Source: a virus
UHGV virus genome: UHGV-0137073
Length of the DNA: 42,824 nucleotides
Reading direction: 5' to 3' (one strand)
Position numbers and translations under genes: made by a program. The stretch's first letter is position 1. Each line of letters begins with the position of its first letter. Of the stretch, positions 56-37,106 are shown in pieces. Below the pieces are notes generated by a model. The model was not told where the DNA came from. It ran no database searches and saw nothing but the letters and a program-made list of their open reading frames with translations.

Positions 56-99
56 TGATGCGCCGCGCGATAAATGCACTCTATCTTGTGCGATAAATG
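56..99 (+). repeat. Left terminal repeat of Mu-like element (putative transposase binding boxes)
   Basis: TGAT(56-59)-N9-GATAAATG(69-76)-N15-GATAAATG(92-99); same architecture in inverted orientation at 37063-37106. Confidence 0.65.
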
Positions 100-133
100 G
101 CATCCACGCGGCGTTTCATTATTTGAAAAAGAA

Positions 134-706
134 TTACATTTCAGGTTGCGTTATGACAGTCCCAACAGGGTGGTAGCGGTAGATCGTTGACAGTCCAATA
201 TCATAGATAATTGCCAGCCGCTTTCTGTCATACCCTTTCTGGAGCAATCTTGCGATCTGCTCATGCTGCTCCTTCGTCAGTTTCGGGCGACGTCCTCCAA
301 CTCTTCCTTGTGCTCGCGCAGCAGCCAGTCCTGCCAGCGTGCGCTCAACTATCAGTTCACGCTCCATTTCTGCCAGTGCACCCATCATATGAAAAAAGAA
401 CCTTCCCATCGGAGTGCTGGTATCGATTGAATCCGTCAGACTGCGAAAATTGACACCTTTTGCGCGTAGCTCTTCTGTGAGAGCAATGAGGTGTTTCATT
501 CTTCTACCCAACCGATCCAGCTTCCAGACCACCAATGTATCCCCTCTTTTAAGGCACTTTAAAGCGCGTTTCAGGCCTGGTCGTTCCGACTTGGTTCCGC
601 TCATTTTGTCCTCAAAAATCTGTTCACATCCTGCGCACATTAATGCATTGCGTTGCAAATCTGTGTTTTGGTCATTTGTTGACACACGTATGTAGCCAAT
701 CAGCAT
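134..706 (-). CDS. Serine DNA invertase, Gin/Pin/Cin/Hin family
   Basis: Translation from internal ATG gives MLIGYIRVSTNDQNTDLQRNAL..., near-identical to the Mu Gin N-terminus as recalled; the ORF extends upstream to 835 but the family start is the MLIGY methionine. Confidence 0.9.
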   Translation of the reverse strand: MLIGYIRVSTNDQNTDLQRNALMCAGCEQIFEDKMSGTKSERPGLKRALKCLKRGDTLVVWKLDRLGRRMKHLIALTEELRAKGVNFRSLTDSIDTSTPMGRFFFHMMGALAEMERELIVERTLAGLAAARAQGRVGGRRPKLTKEQHEQIARLLQKGYDRKRLAIIYDIGLSTIYRYHPVGTVITQPEM

Positions 707-760
707 TAAAAATACTCCCTTTTGAGTGGTTAAAGTACTGAGATAATGTGGGGAGGATTT

Positions 761-786
761 GAGAGATAAACGTTGGTTTGGGGGAA
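761..786 (+). promoter_or_regulatory. Invertase crossover site 1 (gix/hix-like 26-bp site)
   Basis: Reverse complement TTCCCCCAAACCAACGTTTATCTCTC resembles hix/gix half-site TTC..AAACC around a central dinucleotide; sits at the 5' end of cassette A. Confidence 0.6.
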
Positions 787-1281
787 GGCTCTGCACTGCC
801 TGTTGGTGTGCCTGTTCCATGGCCCACCGCCACACCGCCAGCAGGCTGGTTAAAGTGCGACGGGCGCGCCTTTACAAAAGAACAATATCCTGTTCTGGCC
901 AGAGTCTACCCGACCCTCCGTCTTCCCGATTTGCGCGGTGAGTTTATCCGTGGATGGGACGACGGGCGCAAAGTTGATACGGGGCGTTCATTGCTAAGTG
1001 GTCAGGCTGCAACATTTATTCGTACAGCTTTGCAGGATTATTACGGTTACGATCTGAATACTAATGTCAAAGTAGGTATCGCTTTTGCTACTGCTGATTC
1101 TGTTATAACCGTTGGAAACCCAGCTAATCCTAAAGCAGGAAATAATAGCGATTATGTTCCTGCATCAGCAGATAACTCTATAACGGGTATTCAAAGGACA
1201 GCGGAGGATAATTTTACCGGGGCATGGATATCAATGCGCCCCCGCAATGTTGCGTTTAATTACATCGTAAGGGCCGCATAA
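778..1281 (+). other. Silent tail-fiber C-terminal cassette A (promoterless alternative receptor-binding segment)
   Basis: First ~68 aa (GEGSALPVGVPVPWPTATPPAGWLKCDGRAFTKEQYPVLARVYPTLRLPDLRGEFIRGWDDGRK) nearly identical to an internal stretch of the expressed tail fiber, then divergent, ending in conserved NYIVRAA. Confidence 0.75.
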
Positions 1282-1300
1282 AAACGTTGGTTTGGGGGAA
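1275..1300 (+). promoter_or_regulatory. Invertase crossover site 2
   Basis: Same conserved half-site as site 1 (..AAACGTTGGTTTGGGGGAA), directly repeated relative to site 1. Confidence 0.6.
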
Positions 1301-1765
1301 GGCTCTGCATTGCCTGTTGGTGTGCCTGTTCCGTGGCCCACCGCCACACCGCCAGCAGGCTGGTTACAGTGCAACGGAGCTACGTTCACCAAAGAACAAT
1401 ATCCTGTTCTGGCCAGAGTCTACCCGACCCTCCGTCTTCCCGATTTACGCGGTGAGTTTATCCGTGGATGGGACGACGGGCGCAAGATTGACGAGGGGCG
1501 TAAGTTGCTTTCATGGCAGAAAGGTACACTGGTCGGCGGTCATGACGATAACGATTCTTCGCTGGATATCTCGTACATGAGTAACGGAAATAATATTGAC
1601 TATGGCGGCGATAAGGTGTTTGCGGGGAATTACTGTAGCGATTATTTGTGGTACGCAATTCTGGGTGGAACAAACAGTCGCGCAAAAGCCGAATTAAACG
1701 GAGCATTCTTTAACATAACCCGCCCCCGCAATATCGCGTTTAACTATATCGTGAGGGCGGCGTGA
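1292..1765 (+). other. Silent tail-fiber C-terminal cassette B
   Basis: Same conserved leader as cassette A and the expressed fiber, different variable middle, conserved C-terminal NYIVRAA. Confidence 0.75.
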
Positions 1766-1771
1766 TACCGT

Positions 1772-2386
1772 TCAGCTGGCAAGTGCCAGTGGCGCTTCCG
1801 GCCAGCTGATTTCAGGTGCCGTGCTGATATCCAGTGCGTTCAGCTCGTCGATATAATCCAGCACGGCGTTCAGTTTTGCCGTTTCTTCTGGTGTCAGACT
1901 GCGACCAGCACGCAGTTTGAGGTTGATAAGATCGACGGACGCCATCGCCTGTTTCACCCGTTGCTGGCGTTGCTGTCTGGCAACCTCCAGTTCTGCGGCT
2001 CGCTGCCGTTCAGTATCGGTTACCCACGCCTCACCGTTCCAGGTATCCCATGGCGTGGCCGGCTGTTTTGTGGTGGTGTCCGCCGGGTAATCACCCGGTT
2101 GGGTAATCAGAACGGGGTTACCGTTCTCCGTGCTGTATACCGTCTCGCCGCGGTGATCAGGCACATGCTCCCACCCGTTCAGCGTGGCAGTCCGGCAAAC
2201 CACGTAACCCGAAATTGCCTCCGGCGGTGCATCGGCGCACGAATGTGCCGGAGTACCCACCCCAAGGGCGAGATACTCCACAGAGGATGAGGTGTATTCC
2301 CGGGTTTCCTCGTCATAGTGATATACAGTGATCTCGCCCGCTACAGTGGCGATACCGTTTTCATCCAGAACTGCAGTGTTACTCAT
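1772..2386 (-). CDS. Tail fiber assembly chaperone (Tfa, Mu U / P2 G-like)
   Basis: Immediately downstream of the tail fiber gene with overlapping start/stop; acidic C-terminus ...LDYIDELNALDISTAPEISWPEAP typical of Tfa proteins. Confidence 0.7.
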   Translation of the reverse strand: MSNTAVLDENGIATVAGEITVYHYDEETREYTSSSVEYLALGVGTPAHSCADAPPEAISGYVVCRTATLNGWEHVPDHRGETVYSTENGNPVLITQPGDYPADTTTKQPATPWDTWNGEAWVTDTERQRAAELEVARQQRQQRVKQAMASVDLINLKLRAGRSLTPEETAKLNAVLDYIDELNALDISTAPEISWPEAPLALAS

Positions 2387-35628: not shown

Positions 35629-35998
35629 AGGGCCGGAACTCCTGGTGGAGCTGGCACAGCATACCTCTGAGACCGTTCGCGAGATTATTGATATTGAGCC
35701 CGCAATTGCCGACCAGATTGGTCAGGCCGTCGCGAACCGAATGATGCAGGTCTGGGGCGGGCAAAACGTTTATTTCCCGATGGGCATGGTATGGAAGGTC
35801 AGTCAGCGCGACCGGGAAATCTTCAGGGAGTTTAACGGACGCAACCACCACGAACTGGCCCGCAAGTTTGGTGTTTCGCTTCAGTGGGTCTACAGCGTGG
35901 TTAAGCGGGTCAGAAAAGAAGAACTGGATCGGATGCAGGGCAGGTTGTTTGATGAAGATCTGCCAGAGGAGACGAAAGACGTTAACAAATCCAGATAA
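35600..35998 (+). CDS. mor: Mor/C-family transcriptional activator (middle or late gene activator)
   Basis: 132 aa with C-terminal HTH ...ELARKFGVSLQWVYSVVKR; last gene of the early operon before a terminator. Confidence 0.7.
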   Translation: MSDLNQFRSKGPELLVELAQHTSETVREIIDIEPAIADQIGQAVANRMMQVWGGQNVYFPMGMVWKVSQRDREIFREFNGRNHHELARKFGVSLQWVYSVVKRVRKEELDRMQGRLFDEDLPEETKDVNKSR

Positions 35999-36043
35999 TT
36001 CCTGCTTGTTAAAGTCCTTTCAAAAATCTCCTTATTGTATAAA

Positions 36044-36075
36044 AGCACGGTAGACCCCTTACCGTGCTTTTTTTA
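36044..36075 (+). terminator. Rho-independent terminator after the Mor-family gene
   Basis: agcacggta-loop-taccgtgct followed by TTTTTTT. Confidence 0.75.
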
Positions 36076-36112
36076 TGCTCTCTCTTTAGTATTCAGGATG
36101 CAGGGAGAAAAT

Positions 36113-36745
36113 ATGTTTGACGTTTCGTTGTTAAATCTGCCATGGGCAACACTGGTGACCCTGACCAGTGGCTATATTGGGTATTTTATTGCGAATGTGG
36201 GACTGAAGGATCACCACAAGCCCATTGAGGTGACTTTTTCTTCGCTGATTTTTGGCCTGACAGCAATGATGGCTTACCAGGCTGTTATGTGGGCAGGTCT
36301 GAATGCCTGGCTGGCAACACCACCAGCACTTCTGTGTGCCGTTACATGCGGTGCGTGGTGGCGCAGGTACGGTCGCAAATGGATGTACAGATTACTGTGG
36401 AATAATGATATTTCATGGTCTGACGATACCAGCTCAGCATGGCAGGCAATGTTTGATCAAACAGGCTTCAGCGTTACCGAGGTCAGAGTGATTCTTCGCG
36501 ATGGTTCCGGTATGATGTCACGGCTGCCAGGGAACTTTGAAGAGTGGCCTAACGGTCCGTTTACCCTGGGGAATAAAGGCGATATGGTTCTTTACGTCAC
36601 GCACAGCAGCCCTTCAGGCAGTAACGAATGGGAAGAGTATAAAGGCGTGGTTGATAAGTACTGGGGAGCTCTGGCAACCTATATTCCAGCAGATCAGATT
36701 GCCAGAGTGGAGATCAGGCGCGTTCGTGCAACGAACGATGAATGA
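36113..36745 (+). CDS. Membrane protein of unknown function (moron at the prophage right end)
   Basis: 210 aa, three hydrophobic segments then a soluble C-terminal domain; own AGGGAG Shine-Dalgarno, downstream of the terminator. Confidence 0.5.
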   Translation: MFDVSLLNLPWATLVTLTSGYIGYFIANVGLKDHHKPIEVTFSSLIFGLTAMMAYQAVMWAGLNAWLATPPALLCAVTCGAWWRRYGRKWMYRLLWNNDISWSDDTSSAWQAMFDQTGFSVTEVRVILRDGSGMMSRLPGNFEEWPNGPFTLGNKGDMVLYVTHSSPSGSNEWEEYKGVVDKYWGALATYIPADQIARVEIRRVRATNDE

Positions 36746-36748
36746 TGT

Positions 36749-36910
36749 TTATTTTTTCCCTGGGGCAGGGGCTGCCGGCATAGTGGTTTTATTGGCAGAG
36801 GAAGACGATTCTCCTTTTCTACCGGAATCGCGCTCGAACGTCACGATGTGCTTGCTTTTGGGCTTTTCTGAGTAATCCAGGCTATCATGCTTATTGTTTT
36901 GAGTAGTCAT
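36749..36910 (-). CDS. Small hydrophilic ORF (53 aa), hypothetical
   Basis: AAGGA Shine-Dalgarno ~9 nt before ATG at 36910; below the ORF-track length cutoff; Ser/Lys/Pro-rich. Confidence 0.25.
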   Translation of the reverse strand: MTTQNNKHDSLDYSEKPKSKHIVTFERDSGRKGESSSSANKTTMPAAPAPGKK

Positions 36911-37062
36911 TGGAATCATCCTTTTTGTTGCGGGTCATGTTTCAGCAAACTCGATTCTAAGTTGCCAGGAAGGATGATTTCAATGCCCGACTTATCTATC
37001 GTATAGCGGAAAAGAATTTCAGTTCTGTTCACCAGAACCCATGTTAACCCACTCCAATTCGT

Positions 37063-37106
37063 TATTTATCTCACGGATCCCCCTTCATTTATCTCATGTC
37101 TGATCA
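37063..37106 (-). repeat. Right terminal repeat of Mu-like element (inverted copy of left-end boxes)
   Basis: Reverse complement reads TGATCAGACATGAGATAAATG-N15-GATAAATA with spacing identical to the left end. Confidence 0.65.

Follow-up and report, generated by a model that had tools for sequence, protein, structure and literature searches.

We are highly confident that bases 56-37106 of the 42,824-nucleotide virus genome UHGV-0137073 (the whole stretch is here called the window) constitute one intact temperate transposable myovirus prophage of 37 kb, which belongs to the BcepMu/B3 architectural type and sits within a lambdoid prophage, in its replicative-helicase gene. Its boundaries, gene order, homologies and end repeats, as well as target duplications and multiple insertion sites, were observed directly. 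An original prediction had described the gene layout as inside-out relative to phage Mu, with repressor, transposase and ATPase genes near the middle, early genes running rightward and the late operon running leftward to an invertase at the left end. The map of open reading frames (ORFs) and their strands, the homology table and the GC skew all agree with this description, apart from an accessory block and silent fibre cassettes. The novelty that it implied did not hold, since this layout has been published both for BcepMu-like phages (PMC2771037) and, as an inverted early layout, for B3-like phages (PMC5977238). Layout and element are already known; the element belongs to a prophage lineage that is common in E. 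coli, and its close relatives have been deposited and classified.

The invertase (134-706) and all genes from the tail fibre (2386-3549) through the holin (24618-25001) lie on the minus strand, and the genes from 27948 to Mor (35600-35998), and onward to 36745, on the plus strand. The repressor (27509-27847) is on the minus strand, pointing away from the early operon. Cumulative GC skew goes down to ~25 kb and then up, a turn that fits two divergent transcription arms. The exceptions, which the original prediction had passed over, are a mostly plus-strand accessory block at 25099-27392 and silent plus-strand fibre cassettes at 778-1281 and 1292-1765. The features around the point of divergence are as follows.

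27399-27423, minus strand: intrinsic-terminator-like hairpin just 3' of the repressor gene, with an 11-bp stem and a T run (consensus scan)
27509-27847, minus strand: lysogeny repressor of the Cro/C1 (XRE) helix-turn-helix (HTH) type, 112 aa, Pfam HTH_3
27848-27947: divergent control region, the 100 nt between the repressor and the small HTH gene
27872-27900, plus strand (rightward): sigma-70-like early promoter candidate, TTGACT-17-CATAAT (consensus match)
27948-29419, plus strand: start of the early operon, three genes homologous to BcepMu gp16, gp12 and gp10
27948-28136, plus strand: small HTH protein, 62 aa, gp16 homologue, positional Ner/Cro analogue, sub-threshold match to Pfam HTH_35
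28183-28497, plus strand: winged-HTH regulator, gp12 homologue
28508-29419, plus strand: DUF3102 protein, gp10 homologue
29423-31192, plus strand: DDE (rve) transposase, 589 aa
31203-32369, plus strand: AAA+ (AAA_22, ExeA-like) transposition ATPase, start taken from the Prokaryotic Genome Annotation Pipeline (PGAP)

The repressor is 36% identical to BcepMu gp17 (E 6e-10), and the alignment begins at residue 2 of the protein started at the ATG at 27847. The gene that had been called ner-like deserves that name by its position; by sequence it does not, as BLAST finds no similarity to Mu Ner. The transposase has the predicted length and is, as claimed, not that of Mu: rve is its sole Pfam domain, it has no similarity to MuA, and it is 68% identical to BcepMu gp09, 69% to its phiE255 counterpart and 57% to that of B3, with weak similarity to IS481 and IS21 transposase models. 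The adjacent ATPase, 59% identical to BcepMu gp08, is the predicted functional counterpart of MuB. When the transposase and the ATPase were searched by sequence against solved structures, the matches were marginal or uninformative, and MuA and MuB were in neither list.

Relationships to known phages were assessed by comparing 58 translated ORFs of the element and 10 ORFs of the lambdoid flank with the genomes of BcepMu (a Burkholderia phage of Bcepmuvirus, AY539836 / NC_005882, with which phiE255 is grouped), Mu and PhiKM. Thirty-six ORFs match BcepMu (E<=1e-3) at 30-76% amino-acid identity and in unbroken reverse-collinear order. The late arm at 2386-25001 corresponds to BcepMu 33077-11552 and the early arm at 27509-35998 to 9489-389; because the BcepMu coordinates fall monotonically, the two genomes are collinear end to end as reverse complements. 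Identities include 76% for the sheath, 62% for the large terminase subunit (TerL), 59% for the portal and 56% for Mor. The resemblance to BcepMu-like phages that the original prediction had pointed to is thereby confirmed in the transposase, ATPase, repressor and ends as well as in gene order.

Both phages have two divergent clusters with lysogeny control at the interface, followed by lysis, head and tail genes, and in both an rve transposase of the Tn552-IS1604 kind, unrelated to MuA, lies beside an ExeA-like ATPase. They further share the DUF3102 protein, the gp16, gp12 and gp17 homologues, an early arm whose far end has GemA and a single Mor, a lysis cassette made up of holin, SLT endolysin and Rz, TerL, portal and F proteins resembling those of Mu, and a P2-like tail module with homologues of gp39-gp52 in the same order. 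In the annotations of BcepMu and B3, the genes for Mor, GemA, ATPase, transposase, DUF3102 protein (or gp10 homologue), regulators and the small HTH protein are on one strand, and those for repressor, lysis and terminase on the opposite strand, in the order seen here. Lavigne et al. 2009 (PMC2771037) describe BcepMu as two opposite-strand clusters with lysogeny control at their interface, a transposase of the Tn552-IS1604 type unrelated to that of Mu, CA termini and a P2-like tail, and they give percentages of shared proteins. A further trait of BcepMu-like phages is random host DNA at both ends of the packaged genome. Unlike BcepMu, the element has an Escherichia host, a block with a Dam-type methyltransferase, a Mu-type Gam and an unrelated middle of the early arm.

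Megablast against phage records divides the window into three parts (1-55, 56-37106 and 37107-42824), the central one matching the Escherichia phages PhiKM and Phi06_2974 B and the Klebsiella phage KP12. The left terminus is T56, reading TGATGCGCC..., and the right terminus is A37106, closing ...TCTGATCA; the termini are thus 5'-TG...CA-3'.

1-55, minus-strand sense: left flank, outside the element, a fragment of a phage tyrosine integrase gene 98% identical to int of CUS-3, N7 and phiv205-1
56-101, plus strand: left end, with the TG terminus and two sub-terminal transposase-site repeats GCGATAAAT at 67-75 and 90-98
37061-37106, minus strand: right end, with two GAGATAAAT repeats at 37064-37072 and 37087-37095 (minus strand) and the CA-3' terminus
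37107-37374, minus strand: right flank, a DnaB-type replicative helicase gene of lambdoid type, of which the insertion has left the 5' part here

The motif G(C/A)GATAAAT is found in two copies per end, 13 nt from the terminus, at a spacing of 23 nt and inverted between the ends. It has seven matches in the window, against a chance expectation of 1.0, and four of these are the end pairs. BcepMu ends are alike, with TGAAG..G(C/A)GATATTT and, 22-23 nt further on, GCGATA(T/A)(T/A)T at the same offset. The claim that the terminal repeats are not of the Mu type is thus upheld: the pairs have BcepMu architecture, and although the right end of Mu also begins TGAAGCG, its repeated sites differ from G(C/A)GATAAAT.

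We weighed whether the element could instead be a canonical Mu or D108 prophage that was internally rearranged and kept Mu-type transposition genes and ends. It does share with Mu the lifestyle of random transposition, the TG...CA termini, the Mor/GemA/Gam set, a Mu-like terminase, portal and F protein, and a Gin invertase along with, at the fibre end, a fibre segment that can be inverted. About ten ORFs match Mu proteins, namely Gin (77% identity), Gam (62%), TerL (49%), F (48%), GemA (36%), Mor (31%), G (29%) and portal (27%), together with short stretches of fibre and baseplate. However, the blastn-based nucleotide similarity is 0.027 (2.7%) to Mu, compared with 0.23 to BcepMu and 0.86 to PhiKM, and MuA, MuB, Ner, c, Com and Mom showed no similarity in pairwise comparisons or in six-frame searches of the window. 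The sub-terminal repeats are not those of Mu, the tail module is the P2-like one of BcepMu, and target duplications are 6 bp long, not 5 bp as in Mu. The genome comparison that the original prediction had proposed was thus carried out with Mu and BcepMu, and it found neither a rearranged Mu nor Mu-type ends. The alignments already refute the rearranged-Mu explanation, and we assign it a vanishingly small probability.

Relative to Mu, matches in the late arm are reverse-collinear and those in the early arm (Gam, GemA, Mor) direct, and the arrangement can therefore be described by a single inversion in which the entire early block, together with the repressor, is turned around with respect to the late block. 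With this inversion the lysogeny switch lies ~9 kb from the nearer end and not at an end. Mu itself, as the original prediction correctly stated, has its repressor and transposase at the left end and all remaining genes co-directional. The arrangement characteristic of Muvirus (MuA, MuB, c and Ner at the left end with co-directional remaining genes, and 5-bp duplications) is absent from the element. Its transposase, ATPase, repressor and Ner-position protein are unrelated to those of Mu, it has one gene of the Mor/C family as opposed to the two of Mu, and it has no Com or Mom. The divergent layout is a textbook difference between transposable phages of the Mu/D3112 type and those of the BcepMu/B3 type.

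The right part of the window (37107-42824) is lambdoid DNA with an O-type replication gene, cII, cro, cI, rexA, rexB and N. The target hexamer CATATC is at 37107-37112, and the intact helicase gene (retrieved sequence L006) reads ...CCGGCATATCCC... across the site. The split of this gene by the transposable phage has probably disabled replication of the lambdoid prophage. For annotation, the 37-kb block with its exact ends is to be treated as one transposable prophage that disrupts a resident lambdoid helicase gene.

The same ends are widespread. A match to the left end was found in 123 complete E. coli genomes, beginning at window base 56 in most of the matches listed and at 50-56 in all of them; a match to the right end was found in 114, ending at 37106 in most of the matches listed and a few bases further in some. 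Carriage is therefore 114-123 of 5,426 complete E. coli genomes (~2%). The adjoining host genes vary (flgA, rfaH, malE, codA, kefF, clbG, tdh and others), and three insertions in finished chromosomes each interrupt a single gene (flgA, rfaH or a terminase gene). Perfect 6-bp duplications were seen at four independent insertions (CCGCAC, CAGTCC, GCGAGC and CATATC), of which the first three belong to simple insertions in finished genomes and the last to a sibling contig from a metagenome; the coordinates for one finished genome (L007) are 745-751 and 39093-39098, and further duplications are seen in L008/L009 and L010/L011. Annotators should thus expect insertions of this lineage to give 6-bp and not 5-bp duplications. 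Tn552 makes duplications of 6-7 bp, which would fit the transposase family. Since the layout is standard and published and the lineage is carried by ~2% of complete E. coli genomes, we regard the element as ordinary.

These data bear on the possibility that the divergent layout is an assembly artefact in which two phage halves or strains were joined. The window is apparently a contig from a metagenome, as contigs of PRJNA240307 are 100% identical to it, its first 55 bases come from a different locus than its right flank, and sibling contigs break inside the invertible repeats. On the other hand, the same 37-kb unit, with the same ends and order, is found in finished E. coli chromosomes between 6-bp duplications, the BcepMu and B3 genomes share its layout, and any chimerism is limited to the 55-base left tip. 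We consider an artefact of this kind exceedingly improbable.

The left tip itself is the one irregular part of the window. Its last bases read CCACAT and the right flank begins CATATC, so that the copy in the window has no target duplication, because its left 55 bases derive from another locus. An ORF fused across the right junction was found in 40 blocks of the public collection, and both of the contigs shown with it were assembled from human-gut metagenomes under PRJNA240307 and are 100% identical to the window. One sibling contig (L020, 13480-13520) has the left junction too, with the rest of the helicase gene and CATATC duplicated. The insertion there is therefore a simple one, and bases 1-55 of the window represent an alternative junction, to an integrase gene. 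This junction either reflects a further insertion or a product of transposition among the sampled phages or hosts, or was created by the assembler at a contig tip; with 55 nt, the tip falls short of the k-mer of 127 that the k127 prefix in the sibling contig names implies. We had considered a transposition-mediated inversion inside the lambdoid prophage, on account of the integrase on the left and the helicase on the right in opposite orientations, and dropped it, as the simple insertion with CATATC duplicated in sibling contigs made it unnecessary. The first 55 bases of the window are not to be taken as the natural left flank of the prophage.

The BcepMu/B3-type prophage, although correctly assembled, might also have decayed into an immobile remnant. 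In favor of this, several early genes have no assigned function, and induction, transposition and virion formation by this copy are predictions from sequence. However, all module genes are full length in comparison with BcepMu and PhiKM, and both ends and their repeats are intact. In two separate metagenomes, copies without a single difference over the 13.5 kb retrieved (100% identity) occupy different loci, and the element is found at varying sites in more than 100 genomes; both findings point to recent mobility. PhiKM and KP12 have been deposited in GenBank as phage records. We regard a remnant as very unlikely.

Several points weigh against an intact prophage of the BcepMu/B3 type or limit what the name means; the missing target duplication of this copy, mentioned above, is one of them. 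The promoter and terminator calls are consensus matches, and promoter-like sites are not more numerous than expected from shuffled sequence. The element has a tail-fibre inversion system, whereas BcepMu is described as having none (PMC2771037). Finally, nucleotide similarity to BcepMu is far below the level used for genera, as set out next.

Current genus practice of the ICTV, the international committee for virus taxonomy, is ~70% genome-wide nucleotide similarity to the type species. The element, in which 33% aligns with BcepMu at ~65-70% identity, stands at 23%, and 'BcepMu-type' therefore denotes an architectural or family-level likeness and not a genus assignment. At the protein level, the 36 matching ORFs equal ~68% of the 53 genes of BcepMu, above the proteome criterion of at least 40% shared proteins that Lavigne et al. 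reportedly applied in 2009. PhiKM (PQ738613), the closest phage record, is filed by GenBank under Bcepmuvirus. Its proteins are 97-100% identical to those of the element for the transposition genes and the greater part of the late arm; its small terminase subunit (TerS) is 59% identical and it has another fibre C-terminus. As deposited, PhiKM is a partial, permuted record without the ends and the invertase region. KP12 (OM835952) and Phi06_2974 B (KM389306) are ~85-86% identical to the element. The repressor is 33% identical to that of PhiKM (29447-29788), and the immunity types probably differ; as the neighbouring genes are 99-100% identical, this divergence suggests that an immunity module was exchanged within the lineage. 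The Pseudomonas phage B3 (Beetrevirus) has the same inverted early operon and gene order in the early arm, and its holin and Rz are annotated as BcepMu-like; its host and most of its early genes differ from those of the element. B3 is a siphovirus with a non-contractile tail, whereas the element has genes for a sheath, a tube and a P2-like baseplate.

Relatives of BcepMu in enterobacteria (SalMu and PhotoMu) have been known since 2004, Bcepmuvirus prophages have been reported in chromosomes of ST131 E. coli, and Bcepmuvirus is among the taxa given to phages induced from human-gut isolates. The lineage that comprises the element, PhiKM and KP12 may be a mosaic, and possibly a genus-level group of its own, that may combine a BcepMu/B3-type transposition and early module and a P2-like tail with Mu/P1-type three-site Gin switching and Tn552-like 6-bp duplication. 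We put forward only tentatively the combined proposal that the enterobacterial lineage is such a group and that the 55-base flank records a real second insertion or ongoing replicative transposition in the human-gut population.

A life cycle can be proposed from the arrangement of these genes. The repressor would face the divergent early promoter at ~27872-27900, and its release would allow rightward transcription of the genes for the small HTH, winged-HTH and DUF3102 proteins, transposase, ATPase, Gam, GemA and, lastly, Mor. The transposase is expected to bind the two sites, 23 nt apart, at each TG...CA end and to insert or replicate the genome at near-random targets with 6-bp duplications. 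Acting in trans, Mor would next turn on late promoters in the opposite arm, and these would drive leftward expression of the genes for lysis, terminase, portal, head, P2-like contractile tail and fibre. At the far left, the Gin-type invertase presumably switches the fibre C-terminus among three cassettes. We infer promoter use, the Mor-dependent cascade and the present activity of transposase and invertase from this arrangement.

The inversion system consists of the following features.

134-706, minus strand: serine DNA invertase of the Gin/Cin/Pin type, 190 aa from a putative MLIGYIRVS start, Pfam Resolvase and HTH_7
768-2906: invertible tail-fibre region with three crossover sites (~768-795, 1282-1309 and 2880-2906)
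778-1281 and 1292-1765, plus strand: silent fibre C-terminal cassettes
1772-2386, minus strand: fibre assembly chaperone, a single gene beside three alternative fibre C-termini
2386-3549, minus strand: tail fibre in its current inversion state, 387 aa, with an N-terminus resembling BcepMu gp52 and Mu S

The invertase thus adjoins cassettes that are bounded by inverted gix-like crossover sites, as expected of an invertible fibre system. Two inverted repeats, 274 nt and 229 nt long and 88-89% complementary, link the expressed fibre at 2633-2906 with the silent cassettes that start at ~770 and ~1284, and alignment of the repeat boundaries revealed a gix-like half-site, GGTTT(A/G)GGNGAA, at all three of them. 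The exact Mu gix sequence and AAACCNNGGTTT were not found in the window, and the crossover sites emerged only from this alignment. Collar and Caudo_TAP Pfam domains are found in the fibre region, and related E. coli genomes have other fibre arrangements and a 630-aa fibre. BcepMu has an acyltransferase at the fibre end, where the element has the invertase and three sites; Mu has two crossover sites.

The remaining features of the late arm, in window order, are the following.

3552-14225, minus strand: P2-like baseplate and tail module with homologues of I, J, W, V, D, X and U
8468-11158, minus strand: tape measure, within the tail module
11234-11651, minus strand: tail chaperones, within the tail module
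12033-12554, minus strand: tube, within the tail module
12554-13981, minus strand: sheath, within the tail module
14222-22607, minus strand: head and packaging module, including connector proteins, 44-62% identical to BcepMu gp27-gp37
15482-16435, minus strand: major head protein
16450-17565, minus strand: protease/scaffold
17780-18238, minus strand: G-like protein
18241-19089, minus strand: F-like protein
19043-20539, minus strand: portal, Pfam Portal_Mu
20539-22062, minus strand: TerL
22059-22607, minus strand: TerS
22604-25001, minus strand: lysis cassette and small late genes, homologues of BcepMu gp21-gp26 in the same order, names from PGAP
23238-23993, minus strand: Rz-like protein
23878-24615, minus strand: SLT-type endolysin
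24618-25001, minus strand: holin
25099-27392, mostly plus strand: accessory block, 2.3 kb between holin and repressor, with no match in BcepMu or Mu
25099-25842, plus strand: gene with no assigned function
25818-26222, minus strand: gene with no assigned function
26221-26436, plus strand: gene with no assigned function
26628-27392, plus strand: Dam-type N6-adenine methyltransferase, Pfam MethyltransfD12, PADLOC MTase_II

The tail module is 46-76% identical to BcepMu gp38-gp51 with the order kept, except for the tape measure (33%) and the tail chaperone (31%); its Pfam labels are GpU, tail X, GPD, base V, GPW, Baseplate_J and Tail_P2_I. Within the head and packaging module, matches to Mu are limited to TerL, F, portal and G (27-49%). 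The three accessory genes at 25099-26436 (phrog_3787, phrog_2266 and phrog_4490) had no match in PADLOC, NCBIfam or Pfam.

The early arm continues to the right of the ATPase gene.

32372-35998, plus strand: rest of the early operon, including small genes with no assigned function
32669-33199, plus strand: Mu-type Gam
34071-34754, plus strand: DUF2786/DUF7168 protein
35137-35628, plus strand: GemA
35600-35998, plus strand: single late activator of the Mor/C family, the sole match of both Mu Mor and Mu C
36113-36745, plus strand: end-proximal gene, 210 aa, phrog_12870

The product of 36113-36745 had no match in Pfam, PADLOC or NCBIfam. The interval from Mor to the right end measures ~1.1 kb, and a small minus-strand ORF is also possible in the 36113-36910 region; cargo genes are often found at this end-proximal position in such phages.

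Some further observations concern neighbouring DNA and non-coding intervals. A search with a 156-aa lambdoid protein, aimed at extending the right flank, returned only prophages of other strains. From 38651 on, the flank is 99.7% identical to lambda; the host lambdoid prophage combines the immunity region of lambda itself (cI, rexAB and N) with an HK544-type O/DnaB-helicase replication module. Some insertions of the lineage sit in genes of other prophages, such as the terminase gene in strain elppa9, and one of the two copies identical over 13.5 kb (L019, ERZ27230277 k119_18766, from an unrelated metagenome) adjoins an EAL-domain gene and a fimbrial operon. Within the head module, a 214-nt non-coding gap (17566-17779) separates the G-like and I-like genes, and BcepMu has a similar gap there; Mu has a strong gyrase site and a late promoter at this position.

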